From Flavobacteriaceae bacterium (lineage in GTDB: Bacteria > Bacteroidota > Bacteroidia > Flavobacteriales > Flavobacteriaceae): 64,000 nucleotides of DNA. The stretch spans positions 494-64,493 of the forward strand of contig CANFHF010000009.1 in the NCBI GenBank assembly GCA_947446635.1. Direction: 5' to 3'. Every line of letters begins with the position of its first letter. Positions within the stretch are counted from its first letter, which is position 1. A model generated the notes under the pieces. The model had not been told where the DNA came from. It did no database searches and saw nothing but the letters and a program-made list of their open reading frames with translations. This document shows positions 40,611 through 44,832 of this stretch, piece by piece. The translations under genes were made by a program, and so were the position numbers.

Positions 40611-41162
40611 ATGAAATCTAAAGTTCTACTATTATTGTTCTTGGGAATGCTGCAGCTTCAGGCTCAAACTGCTAAAAAAACAGCTTCAACCAAAAAGCCG
40701 ATTCCAGCTAAAACAACAACTGAAACGTCAAAAGAATCGGGCGATAGCGAACAGTCCAAGGAATTGGTTTGGCAGACGGATATGAACAAAGCCATTGCGA
40801 TGAGCAATAAAGCCAAAAAGCCCATGTTGTTGTTTTTTACGGGTAGCGATTGGTGCGGCTGGTGCATCCGCTTGCAGAATGAAGTTTTGAAAACTCCTGA
40901 ATTTGCTGCTTGGGCCAATAAAAACGTGATTTTGGTGGAGTTGGATTACCCAAGAAGAACCCCGCAATCCCCAGAGATTCAAAAGCAAAACGCGGAATTG
41001 CAGAACGCTTTTGGAATTCAAGGATTCCCTACGGTATGGTTTGCCAATGCGGAATCTAGAGAAGGGAAAGTAAATTTTGCACCCTTAGACAAAACAGGGT
41101 ACGTTGCCGGAGGGCCTGTAGCCTGGCTGGCAGTAGCCGATGGAATTCTAAATAAGAAATAA
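40611..41162 (+). CDS. Exported thioredoxin-family protein
   Basis: Signal peptide; FTGSDWCGWC CxxC; IQGFPT cis-Pro loop. Confidence 0.9.
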   Translation: MKSKVLLLLFLGMLQLQAQTAKKTASTKKPIPAKTTTETSKESGDSEQSKELVWQTDMNKAIAMSNKAKKPMLLFFTGSDWCGWCIRLQNEVLKTPEFAAWANKNVILVELDYPRRTPQSPEIQKQNAELQNAFGIQGFPTVWFANAESREGKVNFAPLDKTGYVAGGPVAWLAVADGILNKK

Positions 41163-41242
41163 TTTTTTTTACTCCAATCTAAAAAATCCCTTTTCGCCAG
41201 TTGAGTGAAAAGGGATTTTGTTTTTCTCGCAACTAGCTTCCC
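41136..41242. repeat. Direct repeat copy 1: thioredoxin 3' end, terminator and orphan comEC 3' end
   Basis: Matches 42767-42869: first 27 nt identical, comEC part 61/74 identical by hand alignment. Confidence 0.9.
41181..41219 (+). terminator. Terminator of the thioredoxin gene
   Basis: AAAATCCCTTTTC...GAAAAGGGATTTT hairpin. Confidence 0.8.
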
Positions 41243-41244
41243 CC

Positions 41245-41346
41245 GCTAGCGCGAGCGTCACGCTCGTGACAACAATCTCTTACAGGCACGAGTTAGAAGC
41301 TCGCGCTAGCTGGGGGGTGGGTCACGAGCTTGAAGTTCGCTAGAGC
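41245..41346. repeat. REP cluster 1: inverted doublet (41245-41268, 41287-41310) plus a degenerate unit (41323-41346)
   Basis: Unit GCTAGCGCGAGC-N6-CTCGTG (24 nt) with internal hairpin CGAGCG-TCA-CGCTCG. Confidence 0.9.
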
Positions 41347-41353
41347 AGAAGGA

Positions 41354-41905
41354 TCACGAGGATTGATTTTCCCAAAATCCAATGAATGAAGTCTGAGATT
41401 TTGCATGTTTTATCGCAAATATAATTCCGATGATAAATGAAATTAAGTAAAATCCACCAATCCCGCCCCTATTGATGTAAAATAAATCTAACAAACCTGC
41501 CAATAAATCATTTTCTGTATAAGAAATTTTTATATAATAAATAAAGAAGTGGGCTGAGACAAGAAATATACTTAAAACATATGCTATTAATACTTTAAAT
41601 TTTGGTGCCATATAACTACTTGCATTCACAAAAGTGTAGCTTGTAAAAATAGGTAAAATGATAAATGCAACAATACCAATGTTTACATGACCTCCATTAT
41701 CATCCTGCGATTCAGGAACAAAAGCCAATAGTAATCTTATTGCCAAGCCTAGAACAACAAATGCAATTAATGAATAAGGTAAAATCAGAATATATCTAAG
41801 AATAATAGGTAGTTTATTAACTTTTTTTGTGATTATCCAAAATAAATAACCCAATGTTAAAATTGATATTATTATAGCATAATTAGTAATTGTATCTGTA
41901 GTCAT
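41354..41905 (-). CDS. AT-rich multi-pass membrane protein (cargo, 183 aa)
   Basis: About 5 hydrophobic segments; bracketed by REP doublets; no family recognised. Confidence 0.7.
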   Translation of the reverse strand: MTTDTITNYAIIISILTLGYLFWIITKKVNKLPIILRYILILPYSLIAFVVLGLAIRLLLAFVPESQDDNGGHVNIGIVAFIILPIFTSYTFVNASSYMAPKFKVLIAYVLSIFLVSAHFFIYYIKISYTENDLLAGLLDLFYINRGGIGGFYLISFIIGIIFAIKHAKSQTSFIGFWENQSS

Positions 41906-41977
41906 AAAATTATTATTTTAAGTTTTTAAGTATAAAAATGTAAACTTATTTTAGGACGAGACATTAAATTTGCCCCC

Positions 41978-42043
41978 GCTAGCGCGAGCGTCACGCTCGT
42001 GCCAACAATCTCTTGCGTGCACGAGCTATAAGCTCGCGCTAGC
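41978..42043. repeat. REP cluster 2: inverted doublet (41978-42001, 42020-42043)
   Basis: First unit identical to 41245-41268; spacer CCAACAATCTCTTGCGTG similar to that of cluster 1; both doublets preceded by CCCCC. Confidence 0.92.
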
Positions 42044-42062
42044 ATTAGACCCACAATATCAA

Positions 42063-42611
42063 TCAATTTAAATCTATCTCTAAAACAGTATGGTCGTCAT
42101 TGCCATAATTTCTTGCACTGCTATATTTCCAATCTATAGGGTCGGTTACAAATCCTGTTTCTACTGGATTGTTATGAATATATTCCAACTTTTGTTCAAA
42201 AACTTTTAAGGACCAAATCTCAATTGGTTTATTATTTTGTTGCCAAAATTGTCTAAATTTAACATTACTGTTTTTCTTTCCGGCTCTTTCAAACATCCAG
42301 AGCATCCATTCGCGTCTGCTTTCTTGATTATTTTCTTCAATAAATTTCAACATTTTTCTGGAAGTAAAACCTTTAAAATCTCTTATCAATCCAGATGGAT
42401 CACCTAATGTTGACCTGAAAATTAAATGAATATGACTTGGCATAATGCAATACCCATAAATGTCCATTCCTTTATTTTTTCTACAAAAGTCGAGCGATTC
42501 AATGATAATATCAAAATAATCTACTCTCGTAAACACATCTATCCAATATACCGTTGAAAAACTTATAAAATAGGCTCCTTCTTTTTCGCCAAATTTATAT
42601 TTTCTGCTCAT
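42063..42611 (-). CDS. rayT: REP-associated tyrosine transposase (RAYT, Y1 HUH family)
   Basis: YFISFSTVYW, GYCIMPSHIHLI (HUH), FWQ, KLEYIHNNPV (catalytic Y), DWKYSSA. Confidence 0.93.
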   Translation of the reverse strand: MSRKYKFGEKEGAYFISFSTVYWIDVFTRVDYFDIIIESLDFCRKNKGMDIYGYCIMPSHIHLIFRSTLGDPSGLIRDFKGFTSRKMLKFIEENNQESRREWMLWMFERAGKKNSNVKFRQFWQQNNKPIEIWSLKVFEQKLEYIHNNPVETGFVTDPIDWKYSSARNYGNDDHTVLEIDLN

Positions 42612-42622
42612 GGTCTTTTTTT

Positions 42623-42630
42623 CAAATATA
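42623..42630 (-). promoter_or_regulatory. -7 promoter box of rayT
   Basis: TATATTTG 12 nt upstream of the ATG. Confidence 0.6.
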
Positions 42631-42699
42631 AATATTTATAAAACAACAAACTACAACTTTTTTGGGTTGTAGTTGGTTTTGTTTGCTTTTGTTAGTGGG

Positions 42700-42757
42700 C
42701 ACGAGCTAGAGGCTCGCGCTAGCATTAGAACTACACGAGTTTGAAGTTCGCACCAGT
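42700..42757. repeat. REP cluster 3: one unit (42700-42723) plus a degenerate unit (42734-42757)
   Basis: CACGAGCTAGAGGCTCGCGCTAGC and CACGAGTTTGAAGTTCGCACCAGT. Confidence 0.85.
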
Positions 42758-42766
42758 AATAAGTTT

Positions 42767-42869
42767 GCCGATGGAATTCTAAATAAGAAATAATTTCAAT
42801 CCAATCTATAAAATCCCTTTTTTCCCGTCGCATGAAAAGGGATTTTCATTTTCAGGCAACTAGCTTCCC
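42767..42869. repeat. Direct repeat copy 2: orphan thioredoxin 3' end plus the functional comEC 3' end
   Basis: GCCGATGGAATTCTAAATAAGAAATAA (ADGILNKK*) identical to 41136-41162. Confidence 0.9.
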
Positions 42870-44832
42870 AAAGGCTAATATACGTTTTATAATTAGAACC
42901 ATCAGCTACCACCATTTCAGGTTTTAGGGTTTGAAACATCCGCTCCAGATTTATTTTTGGGGATTGGGTCAGCACCACAATATCAGGAGTACTGTTTTTT
43001 GGATACACGCCCAAACTATCCAAAACTAAAATCTTTTTGTCCTGGAAATAAAGGGTGTTTTGTAGCTTTTTTTTCGATTTCAAATGACTGAAATTGCCCA
43101 TTAGGTAGGAGGTTAGCGTTTTATTTTCGGATGCGGTTTTCAAAAGGCTATCATTGGCAAACAGGGTACTATTTTCTCCATTTCGTTCCGTAATCAGCGT
43201 GTTTTTTTTCGAGTGGAAAATGACGAATTCTTTTTGGCTTTGATTCGTCCAATGGGTTTCGAAATAGGTGATTTGTAAAATAAAAATGGCGATCAAAGAA
43301 AGTGCGAGTCTATTGAAACTTGGTTTTTTGAACCAAAGAACCAAGCTGACAATCAACAAATAAAAACTCACTAATAAAGGCCAGTTGAACGGAATATCCC
43401 GAATGATAAATTGCTCTAATGAGGCAATGGCGTTGATGATTTTGTTCAAAATTAAAATGCTCCATTCGAATCCTTTGGCAAGAAACAACGGCACATAATC
43501 GAAGGCCGCCAATACCATGACCAAAACGCCCAAGCCCATAATGAGGCTCAAAAATGGAATAATCACCAAATTGGTCACAAAAAACAAGCCCGGAAACTGG
43601 TGAAAATAGTAAATGCTCAACGGGAATGCGCCAATTTGCGCGGCGAAAGAAACCGTGAGAATTTCCCAAAAGTAATTTGTTACTTTATTTTTAGGCACCC
43701 AAAGTTGGGCCAATAAAGGTTGTAACCAAAGAATAAAAAATAGGGCGATATAACTTAACTGAAAACCCACGTCAAACAAAAACGAAGGTTGGAATAGCAA
43801 AATAAGCAATATCGAAACCAATAAAGTATGGTAAATGTTGGTGCTTCTTCTTAAATACATGCCAATAGCCACAAACGAAAACATCGCCACGGAACGCACC
43901 ACCGAAGGAGCCAATCCTGCAATTAATCCGAAGAGCGATAACGACAGCAGAATAATTATCAACTTGATGAAAGAACCTCGCCTGGTATTAGGAAAAGGCT
44001 TGAGGAGGAAAGTCACAAAAAGCAGTATAAACCCAATGTGCAATCCCGAAACCGACAAAATATGTACGGCACCGGCATATTGGTAATCCCGAATAATATC
44101 GGGCGAAATCTCCTGTTGCTGTCCCAGAATTAAAGCAATGGCAACGTTGAGTTCTGCTTTGTTGAAATGGTTTTTTTCTAGATTATGAATAATTTTCGTG
44201 CGCAATTTAGACGTATAGTACCAAGGGTCTTTGTCCAGTCGAGAACCCGTTTGAATTTCGGCTGCATCGGCGTAGAGTTGGGCGTAGATTTGTTTGTTTT
44301 CGAGGTATTTGCCATAATCAAATTGGTTCGGATTTTTCGCTAGACTATTTTTATAAAGTGCGCCCTTGATGCGCAAATGAGTCCCTATTTCGAAAGGATG
44401 ATTCAAGCTGTCTTTTCGGACATTCAGGAGAATTCTGCCCGAATGTTTCTTGGTGTCGATTTTGTTTACAATCGCAATATAGCGGTCGTTATAAGCGGAA
44501 CTTCTGAGTTTTTCCCGAACAGTAACCGATATAAGATGCGGTTTTTCGAAAATCGTCGGGTCATGGACATAATTCGATTGCTGATAAGAATCGGTGTGGA
44601 TAATTTGTGTGGTGGCGCCTATTCCCATAGCAAGAAAATAAGTGGCAAAACCAAAATAGAGCGGATTTATGGTGATTTGTTTCGAAAGAAAATAAGTAAT
44701 ACTAAAGACGATTCCTGCGAGCAGCAGCAGGATAAATATACATTCGGGATTGGGGTTTAGATAATAAGCGCCAAGTATGCCCGCCACAAACCCAATCGTA
44801 ATTCTCGCTAAAGGGAATGTTAATATGCTCAT
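42796..44832 (-). CDS. comEC: ComEC/Rec2 competence protein
   Basis: NPNQFDYGKYL, GAVHILSVSGLH, PSVVRS, DVGFQLSY, FSSAQ-like SFAAQIGAFPL. Confidence 0.93.
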   Translation of the reverse strand: MSILTFPLARITIGFVAGILGAYYLNPNPECIFILLLLAGIVFSITYFLSKQITINPLYFGFATYFLAMGIGATTQIIHTDSYQQSNYVHDPTIFEKPHLISVTVREKLRSSAYNDRYIAIVNKIDTKKHSGRILLNVRKDSLNHPFEIGTHLRIKGALYKNSLAKNPNQFDYGKYLENKQIYAQLYADAAEIQTGSRLDKDPWYYTSKLRTKIIHNLEKNHFNKAELNVAIALILGQQQEISPDIIRDYQYAGAVHILSVSGLHIGFILLFVTFLLKPFPNTRRGSFIKLIIILLSLSLFGLIAGLAPSVVRSVAMFSFVAIGMYLRRSTNIYHTLLVSILLILLFQPSFLFDVGFQLSYIALFFILWLQPLLAQLWVPKNKVTNYFWEILTVSFAAQIGAFPLSIYYFHQFPGLFFVTNLVIIPFLSLIMGLGVLVMVLAAFDYVPLFLAKGFEWSILILNKIINAIASLEQFIIRDIPFNWPLLVSFYLLIVSLVLWFKKPSFNRLALSLIAIFILQITYFETHWTNQSQKEFVIFHSKKNTLITERNGENSTLFANDSLLKTASENKTLTSYLMGNFSHLKSKKKLQNTLYFQDKKILVLDSLGVYPKNSTPDIVVLTQSPKINLERMFQTLKPEMVVADGSNYKTYISLWEASCLKMKIPFHATGKKGFYRLD

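Follow-up and report, generated by a model that had tools for sequence, protein, structure and literature searches.

RAYTs (REP-associated tyrosine transposases; REP, repetitive extragenic palindrome) are the textbook example of a domesticated bacterial transposase, and in the accepted picture each genome carries one immobile rayT gene that spreads short doublets of inverted REPs, the REPINs. A locus of a freshwater Flavobacterium raises the question of whether such repeats may also delimit genes that are gained, lost and exchanged. It lies in a stretch of 64,000 nucleotides (hereafter the window) of contig CANFHF010000009.1 (positions 494 to 64,493; Flavobacteriaceae bacterium, assembly GCA_947446635.1), between a thioredoxin-like gene (trx) and comEC. 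Inspection of positions 41240-42766 revealed, in this order, a REP doublet, an AT-rich gene for a membrane protein (the cargo), a second REP doublet, rayT and a REP pair. The initial annotation had described the same layout, which proved correct, and had proposed that the doublets enclose an excisable or exchangeable cassette captured by the RAYT, in analogy to the attC-bounded cassettes of integrons. We see a little better than an even chance that the locus is a REPtron (a rayT gene with its cognate hairpins on either side) that belongs to a known RAYT subclass and is located in a general insertion hot spot, with a passenger gene between two REPINs and with REP termini acting as break and rejoining points. 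The kind of element is known already; here it comes with REP-anchored modular rearrangement.

The doublets at 41240-41310 and 41973-42043, previously called near-identical 71-bp direct repeats, are indeed 71 nt long, share 92% identity and both begin with CCCCCGCTAGCGCGAGCGTCACGCTCGTG. They are placed in direct orientation around the cargo gene, 733 nt apart. Each is composed of two inverted 24-nt REP hairpins, in which a 7-bp stem (CGCGAGC/GCTCGTG) with a loop of 5 nt stands on the foot GCTAG. As single-stranded DNA each doublet forms a single long hairpin, with folding energies of -28.6 and -26.2 kcal/mol and z scores of -7.5 and -6.7, respectively; none of 200 shuffled sequences folded as well as either doublet. 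Both have the REPIN form, i.e. inverted REPs, a short spacer and a single long fold. The REP motif has five matches in the window, every one within the locus (0.00 expected from shuffled sequences), and no copy was found elsewhere in the 64 kb; the arrangement is far beyond chance. The degenerate REP next to the cargo gene folds no better than shuffled sequences. rayT itself is bordered by cognate REPs in opposite orientation (42700-42723 upstream and 41978-42001 downstream), as it is in ten other loci.

The open reading frame (ORF) at 42063-42611(-) encodes a RAYT whose catalytic motifs are intact. The earlier assignment was upheld by a match to Pfam Y1_Tnp (3.7e-7), by the NCBIfam model REP_Tyr_transpos (93.2 bits, cutoff 80; transpos_IS200 reached 23.5 bits, cutoff 55) and by alignment with Escherichia coli TnpAREP (PDB 4ER8), in which the HUH motif H60-I-H62 and Tyr144 of YIHNNP have their counterparts (EYIHNNPVETGFV...DWKYSS in the window's RAYT; PEHMHCIW; DYIYINPVKHGWV...DWPFST in 4ER8). 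Judged by its length and motifs (SHIH, W123-Q124, YIHNNP, S164-S165; REP foot GCTAG), the protein fits the Bacteroidota-type TnpAY1 subclass 2.6, which a table in PMC6006769 pairs with RAYT Group 5 (PMC5581495). Subclass 2.6 is described as comprising mostly Bacteroidetes proteins of about 179 aa with the motifs NH[LIV]H, WQ, YIH[QN]NP and SS, flanked by atypical hairpins that lack GT[AG]G and also occur elsewhere in the genome (PMC6006769). The window's protein shares the length of about 180 aa, the pattern xH[LIV]H and the remaining motifs, but its HUH motif begins with S, not N. Neither a REP consensus nor doublets of the REPIN type, genes embedded between REPs or tandemly arranged units are described in the accessible text of PMC6006769 and PMC5581495.

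RAYT relatives are numerous (5423 at E<=1e-10), and the best 120 of them, from Flavobacterium, Polaribacter and others, share 82-99% identity; ComEC, unlike these relatives, drops to 55% identity within the same genus. For RAYT Groups 4 and 5, evolution at a slower pace than that of housekeeping genes is reported (PMC5581495), a trait that the subclass has in common with the window's protein, and the high rayT identities given below may partly reflect just this slow evolution. On the rayT strand, the hairpin upstream of the gene is followed by TATATTTG, about 14 nt ahead of the ATG. This sequence matches TAnnTTTG, which we take to be the -7 box of Bacteroidota promoters, and may be a promoter element of rayT. 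Two metatranscriptomes contained contigs over parts of rayT (or of a close relative) and none over the cargo, at a low depth that limits how far this can be read.

The slot between trx and comEC was compared using one genome per species: a ComEC scan yielded 80 Flavobacterium loci (L001-L080), and both genes were found in 74. The nearest ComEC proteins share 95% (L001), 94% (L002) and 89% (L003 and L004) amino acid identity with that of the window. Since the junction is tight in the near relatives L001 and L004, where the slot is empty, the 1.5-kb block of the window is an insertion. The occupied slot was found in four haplotypes, with rayT and cargo (the window), with rayT only (L002), with cargo only (contig L093) and in a second cargo-only form (metagenome run X5). 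All exact copies of the window's rayT allele and cargo, from several lake metagenomes and metagenome-assembled genomes (MAGs), stand in the context comEC-rayT-cargo-trx. An imperfect duplication of the trx/comEC junction, 103-107 bp long (41136-41242 and 42767-42869) and overlooked in the initial annotation, brackets the whole 1524-bp block; its trx-side copy ends in a comEC remnant that REPIN 1 severs from comEC.

The rayT of L002 is 99% identical to that of the window in amino acids and has REPs on either side; the cargo is absent. On its far side the comEC remnant is shorter, at 33 nt, and another junction remnant comes next, then an XRE-type gene; an extra REP, a filler of 6-7 nt and a different spacer are also present. 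L093 has the order trx, junction remnant, REPIN, cargo and single REP, without rayT. It is the only other contig with the cargo (97% amino acid identity) and equals the window minus exactly 41973-42733, the REP-rayT-REPIN unit, apart from 86 extra nucleotides without a window counterpart between its REPIN and degenerate REP (L093 761-846 (+); reverse complement 229-314). The cargo was thus not found without REPs at this locus, since in L093 they stand on both sides of it. Joints in other lake runs (X5, X6 and X10) add further forms, among them an L002-like joint, 41310 to 42003 with AATAGAA between, at depth 23 in X5, where the depth of the cargo is 1-7. A second joint that leaves the cargo without rayT (41966 to 42648) and the empty site of a relative were also detected in lake-run contigs. 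Depths of these Logan contigs are word depths, and rare variants are missed; in run X1, where the window's strain is present, the two junction copies were not seen joined in contigs that drop rare variants. Contigs of other contexts join exactly at the edge of REPIN 1 (41239-41242), as loose contig ends.

Compared with L093, the window differs at 9 of 654 nt in block 41319-41972, which comprises the degenerate REP, the cargo and its upstream region and is 98.6-100% identical in its sub-blocks. Over the flanks, identity is 91% at the trx end, 84% in the junction remnant, 77% in the right REP region and 84% at the comEC end (41 mismatches in 267 nt). The comparison with L002 gave 99.5% for the rayT ORF (3 mismatches in 549 nt), 100% for the 3' REP and spacer and 93.5% for comEC (133 mismatches in 2037 nt). 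Modules that are 98.6-100% identical are therefore found in backgrounds whose flanks differ by 6-23%, which suggests that they are younger than their surroundings. The tracts of high identity stop at REP edges or structural breakpoints, not within the flanking host homology, and the comEC remnant, which is truncated at a different point in each of the window, L093 and L002, meets the same REPIN terminus, CCCC(C)GCTAGCGCG, in all three. Together these two observations argue most strongly for REP-anchored rearrangement. A cleavage-site signature common to the breakpoints could not be derived.

What the sequences show is the anatomy, the polymorphism, the breakpoints at REP edges and the higher identity of modules than of flanks. 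In the reading that we favour, the core unit is REP-rayT-REP. A further REPIN, in effect a pair of unit ends without rayT, lies beyond a small, horizontally acquired membrane gene, so that this gene is bracketed by two REPINs. The REP-bounded segments (rayT unit and cargo module) would be gained, lost and exchanged between related lineages, while the DNA next to the outer REPIN terminus would be eroded to a different extent in each. The breaks could be due to the RAYT, as nicks in REP hairpins on single-stranded DNA, to REP copies that recombine with each other as portable homology, or to both. The cargo would be a passenger, possibly an immunity-type membrane protein, and no substrate of a dedicated capture machine. 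The junction duplication would be a separate feature of the hot spot, through which the block may be lost or moved between strains by homologous recombination. There is a precedent in E. coli, in strains of which tnpAREP has been precisely excised with the REPs of its bacterial interspersed mosaic elements (BIMEs) kept, or the locus has been replaced by a toxin-antitoxin pair, hicAB (PMC3333891).

Several points weigh against this reading. The comparative data do not tell RAYT nicking from recombination between REP copies, or from both, and nothing in them points directly to the enzyme that made the breaks. By its sequence, L002 is not a simple product of recombination between the two doublets. 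L093 is one contig of 1074 nt; apart from F. soyae and a few isolates among L001-L080, the sequences compared are metagenome contigs or MAGs, and repeats of 24-700 nt can yield chimeric joins or contig breaks. This REP family is, moreover, sparse, so REP homology as a general recombination substrate is confined to the locus itself: no copy was found in 1.0 Mb from 80 related species outside the REPtron of L002. A REP scan of metagenomes reached at least 120 contigs (freshwater, marine, soil and sludge), many of the matches sitting at contig ends. REPs that stand without rayT, on the other hand, speak for the reading: eighty REP loci were fetched from these metagenomes, 64 of them without rayT (19 of the 64 with at least 1.5 kb on either side), and REPIN-bearing contigs with other flanks are present in the same samples. 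As a last point against it, small AT-rich ORFs and orphan toxin modules recur directly downstream of rayT units, which may be more than hitch-hiking.

The rayT unit occupies unrelated loci in other Flavobacteriia, different ones in different species. Eleven copies from unrelated loci were aligned, and most have the form CCCC-GCTAGCGCGAGC-N5-GCTCGTG, 40-90 nt, rayT, about 10 nt, CACGAGC-N5-GCTCGCGC(T/C)AGC-GGGGG; the canonical 3' terminus in other species is CACGAGC-N5-GCTCGCGCTAGC-GGGGG. The C run is absent from several copies, among them the window at its 5' REP, and degenerate REPs occur as well. The 24 contigs of P0078 show one context, as does the window's allele. Three contigs (L094, L095 and L096) have one rayT unit in common (96-99.6% identity; L094 and L096 also share the upstream flank), and their homology ends right past the 3' REP and its G run, after which three unrelated sequences follow (L094 770-1100, L095 634-1374 and L096 767-930). 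In the unit common to L098 and L097, homology begins exactly at the 5' REP. L097 (1-820) contains an internally deleted rayT, with the N-terminal 20 aa fused to the C-terminal 20 aa, and a REP, then a lipoprotein ORF of 22% GC and a full unit; in L183 (1667-1899) a second unit, with its REP, cuts rayT off at residue 67. ORFs lie between rayT units or REPs in L097, L171 and L162. The isolate assembly of F. soyae (L103 3258-7680, JAJQXA010000007.1) carries three REP-rayT-REP units that are 94-98% alike, one of them frameshifted, and each directly borders a toxin domain truncated at its 5' end (EndoU, Pfam 8.7e-9; a weak match to a YwqJ deaminase), after which comes a small ORF. In the literature searched, no link of RAYTs with toxin/immunity cassettes or with Flavobacterium was found.

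Further observations concern the surroundings of these units. The F. soyae array lies downstream of a large toxin-like ORF, and the frames of its toxin fragments run straight from the REP terminus. In L095 a Gly-rich ORF runs out of the REP and is followed by a lipoprotein ORF. The unit of L099 (70-4546) is located beside a tyrosine integrase, an HTH_17 gene and a gene for a D5_N/VapE-type primase-helicase, which puts it at the margin of a small integrative element. L224 (4600-5060) has, downstream of a different rayT unit, about 350 nt of tandem repeats and then a REPIN; many contigs of its organism stop at this stretch, and L225 and L226 are such contig ends.

The host genes of the slot are convergent; a gap of no more than 27 nt separates their aligned ends in 42 of the 74 loci, and one of less than 80 nt in 54. 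The two junction copies of the window are identical over the first 27 nt (the trx 3' end), then differ by a 4-nt indel, and their comEC 3' ends share about 79%; the remnant, which covers the last 24 codons, reads EASCEKNKIPFHSTGEKGFFRLE before its stop codon, the genuine end EASCLKMKIPFHATGKKGFYRLD. The last codons of comEC, about 24 of them (42796-42872; copy 41165-41242), encode a hairpin with a perfect 13-bp stem that is conserved across the genus and, seen from the convergent trx, sits 20-30 nt downstream of the stop codon; in the trx-side copy it spans 41183-41219 (-12.1 kcal/mol, z = -6.7). This hairpin is most likely a bidirectional terminator shared by both genes and located inside a coding sequence.

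Inserts without REPs, flanked by the same kind of junction duplication, were identified in three other species, so the slot is a general hot spot. They encode a PIN-family toxin with a small partner ORF (L021; repeats 7969-8046/8730-8806), an M66 peptidase with a type IX secretion system (T9SS) tail (L010; 5769-5845/8225-8299) and two ORFs of unknown function (L029; 7966-8056/10523-10610). Overall the repeats measure 75-107 bp, with end points that vary from 33 to 76 nt into comEC and from 0 to 27 nt into trx; no integrase or other recombinase was found in or near the block or the other inserts. One or two extra tandem trx-like paralogs occupy the slot in 14 of the 74 species (L074 8045-9911, F. 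soyae; L037, L041, L065, L068-L080). Those of F. soyae lack the CxxC motif, and in the three-copy clade to which it belongs the middle paralog has a comEC 3' remnant behind it, which means that plain tandem duplication of trx together with the comEC end does occur. The variability of the slot, with REP-free inserts and 103-107-bp repeats, therefore needs no RAYT. We infer that the tightly convergent pair takes up DNA only if its junction is duplicated; the duplication would have come first, the redundant copy being replaced later, or would have arisen in the same illegitimate event. However it arose, the repeat of 103-107 bp permits loss of the whole block and its Campbell-type re-entry by ordinary homologous recombination. 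A transposon target duplication was rejected on account of the length and varying end points of the repeats, and an att site on account of the missing recombinase. The motif TAAGTTT at the right end of the insert, by the trx remnant, was dropped as a conserved feature: it is present in the window, in L002 (twice) and partly in L021, and not in L010 or L029.

Could the RAYT drive an active cassette system? It would then cleave single-stranded DNA at the foot of the REP hairpins and join REP-bounded segments; the 3' REP terminus would be the attachment point at which accessory modules are inserted, excised and exchanged, and the distal REPIN would offer an alternative end with which a gene could travel. 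The module boundaries that lie exactly at REP termini, with a sharp drop of identity, speak for this, as do the single rayT unit followed from its exact terminus by three different DNAs, the F. soyae array and the ORFs sandwiched in L097, L171 and L162; E. coli TnpAREP cleaves and strand-transfers single-stranded REP DNA in vitro (PMC3333891, PMC8266576). Against it, no second cargo was found between these doublets, the cargo is known solely from this locus and its distant homologs have neither REPs nor rayT, and within a species rayT keeps one locus. Arrays can also arise by tandem duplication and recombination of repeated units, contigs may contain chimeras across a repeat of 0.7 kb, REPtrons reportedly do not transpose as a unit (PMC3333891, PMC6006769), and an E. 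coli mobilome study reports no circles from REP regions or the RAYT gene (bioRxiv 10.1101/2024.07.17.603846). Ordinary recombination of the two 71-bp direct repeats with each other, or breakage at REP hairpins, accounts for the same observations. We consider such a system unlikely. It is similarly doubtful that subclass-2.6 RAYT units of Flavobacteriia organise small accessory-gene arrays as an HUH-driven functional analogue of the integron, and improbable that the modules of such arrays (orphan toxin domains with immunity genes, lipoproteins and small membrane proteins) are swapped by RAYT catalysis at the 3' REP terminus. Of the exchangeable cassette proposed initially, what stands is that REP-bounded segments behave as modules, as seen in the haplotypes, REP-edge breakpoints and identity blocks; the comparison of the trx-comEC interval returned rayT-only, cargo-only and empty forms and no different cargo between these doublets. 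The comparison with attC fails, as no recombination-site logic like attC x attI is present and the cargo occurs only here, and RAYT-driven capture is unproven and has, in our judgement, a low probability.

The opposite explanation makes the bracket a coincidence, in which the cargo came with or after the junction duplication and REPINs later landed independently in both intergenic gaps. REPs and REPINs are intergenic by nature, the two doublets resemble each other no more (92%) than orthologous doublets do across lineages (93%), and the slot varies without REPs in other species. The presence/absence variants would then be imports or deletions by homologous recombination, or assembly artefacts, with REPs and RAYT as bystanders; the junction repeats, which suffice for loss or Campbell-type gain of the whole block, and the numerous REP matches at contig ends can be added in its support. 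As a whole, this explanation appears unlikely to us. Recombination through the flanks predicts otherwise than tracts of high identity that end at REP edges on both sides; the L093 junction, aaatttg joined to CACGAG, is not formable as a k-mer chimera of window-like sequence; one REPIN terminus meets three different erosion points; and terminus-exact junctions recur in unrelated genomes, including the F. soyae isolate assembly. Least probable is that the block is left over from an integrative element for which the trx/comEC terminator hairpin served as att, so that the duplication would be attL/attR and the recombinase would act in trans or be lost. In at least four independent cases (the window clade, L010, L021 and L029) the inserts stand between direct repeats of the target, and L002 has two junction remnants in series, but no insert has an integrase in or beside it, the repeat end points are inconstant, and the F. 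soyae clade obtains the same remnant by tandem duplication alone.

In the locus and its relatives, presence/absence variation of the size of genes breaks exactly at the REP termini of a Bacteroidota RAYT, and in some genomes the rayT unit is repeated between orphan toxin modules and small ORFs, possibly for immunity. If the enzyme makes the joints, RAYTs would have a role in accessory-gene shuffling; if it does not, the locus is a clear example of REPs as passive fracture points. The trx/comEC junction adds a tight convergent pair that would accept inserts only with its shared terminator duplicated, a pattern that may be general and is easily mistaken for an att site. Coordinates of all features are summarized in Table 1.

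Table 1. Features of the trx-comEC slot (window coordinates)
Feature	Coordinates	Strand	Description
Thioredoxin-like gene (DsbH/Thioredoxin_7-type), left host flank	40611-41162	+	Pfam Thioredoxin_7, 2e-13
Junction copy 1 (J')	41136-41242		Functional trx 3' end, then dead in-frame comEC remnant
REPIN 1	41240-41315		REP 41245-41268 and inverted REP 41287-41310; C5/G4 extensions
Degenerate REP	41323-41345		Directly 3' of cargo gene; 74% identity to REP reference
Cargo, 183-aa all-helical membrane protein (predicted), rare unannotated family	41354-41905	-	ORF, model, alignment
Cargo upstream region, part of cargo module	41906-41972	-	100% identity to L093
REPIN 2	41973-42048		REP 41978-42001 and inverted REP 42020-42043; 3' end of rayT unit
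rayT (TnpAREP, 182 aa)	42063-42611	-	Motifs SHIH, WQ, YIHNNP, SS
Hairpin upstream of rayT	42640-42683		Inverted repeat; fold z = -3.5; kept in L002 and L164
5' REP of rayT unit	42699-42756		REP 42700-42723 and degenerate outer REP 42734-42756
Junction copy 2 (J)	42767-42869		27-nt trx 3' remnant (42767-42793), then functional comEC 3' end and hairpin
comEC, right host flank	42796-44832	-	Pfam Competence, 4e-56, and DUF4131

The AT-richness ascribed to the cargo gene is real (27.9% GC, against 36.6% for the whole window, 43.8% for trx and 39.5% for comEC; rayT has 30.8%). Its product has no match in Pfam, NCBIfam or PADLOC. The AlphaFold model (pLDDT 74) is all-helical with five long helices, and no PDB fold matched it at E<=0.001. 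One relative, at 97% identity, was found among 5.8 billion clusters, and a HMMER search of 1.84 billion representatives gave eight matches, all of 137-183 aa; the few distant relatives share 26-43% identity. Conserved motifs of the family are LRYILxLPYS, TSYxFVNASSxMAPKFK, LLD and FAIKHxKS. The all-helical prediction and the few distant homologs of like length indicate that the cargo is a real but rare gene. By exact look-up and cluster search, all its copies, exact and 97%, lie within the trx-comEC slot, and no REP or rayT was found near the distant homologs. We take the cargo to be a small accessory inner-membrane protein, for which the context would allow, as a guess, an immunity-type role. 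A homolog with 39% identity lies in L230 (130-4123) within an array of small unannotated ORFs, separated by a repeat of 75-115 nt that occurs in both orientations with 79-92% identity and differs from the REP; this may be a cassette array of another kind.

Several known systems resemble the locus. The REPtron of E. coli is likewise a Y1 HUH gene bordered by cognate hairpins, with one or two REPs on one side and a variable number of REP pairs 3' of the gene (PMC3333891, PMC8266576). The window differs from it in the REP foot (GCTAG, not GTAG), with a 7-bp stem and a 5-nt loop, in a sparse REP family rather than hundreds of copies, in the protein-coding gene inside the 3' REP array, and in a unit that occupies different loci across species with up to three copies per genome (F. 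soyae). REPINs are two inverted REPs of about 70 nt in all that form a single long hairpin, which a RAYT is presumed to mobilise in trans (PMC3116915); the doublets of the window match this description, except that two copies lie in direct orientation around a gene and that the copy number in the genus appears very low.

With integron cassettes the locus shares folded single-stranded hairpins as sites, promoter-poor small ORFs between imperfect palindromes and, in some relatives (L103), arrays. It has neither IntI nor attI, its enzyme is an HUH nuclease, there is no regularity of one ORF and one site, no cassette is found in two places, and no tyrosine recombinase was found in or beside it; integron membership is excluded and the likeness is functional at most. 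In IS200/IS605 (IS608-type 'peel and paste') and IS91/ISCR elements, subterminal hairpins are recognised on one strand and no target duplication is made, and HUH elements that use a more distant hairpin as an end would carry adjacent DNA along. The window's element, in contrast, is not represented by multiple identical copies with both flanks changed, and no target tetranucleotide can be derived for it. A transposon with a passenger gene (IS200/IS605-type or composite) was rejected, all cargo copies being in the trx-comEC slot.

Arrays of orphan toxin and immunity genes are known from polymorphic toxin loci, and recombinase-associated arrays of immunity genes from Bacteroidales. The 5'-truncated toxin domains and small ORFs that follow rayT units in F. 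soyae and in L094-L096 are comparable to these, as is the cargo homolog in the repeat-separated ORF array of L230; the window, in contrast, has a single membrane ORF and no toxin fragment.

Two minor features of the slot remain. The trx-like gene also matches the NCBIfam DsbH-like model, below its cutoff. About 40 nt upstream of the cargo, the segment 41926-41967 (..TTATTTTAGGACGAGACATTAAATT..) is also present, with 1-2 mismatches and different flanks, in contigs of X1, X5 and X22, and possibly represents another small repeat family; one of its flanks in these runs carries a different hairpin (CACAAGCGTGACGCTTGCG).

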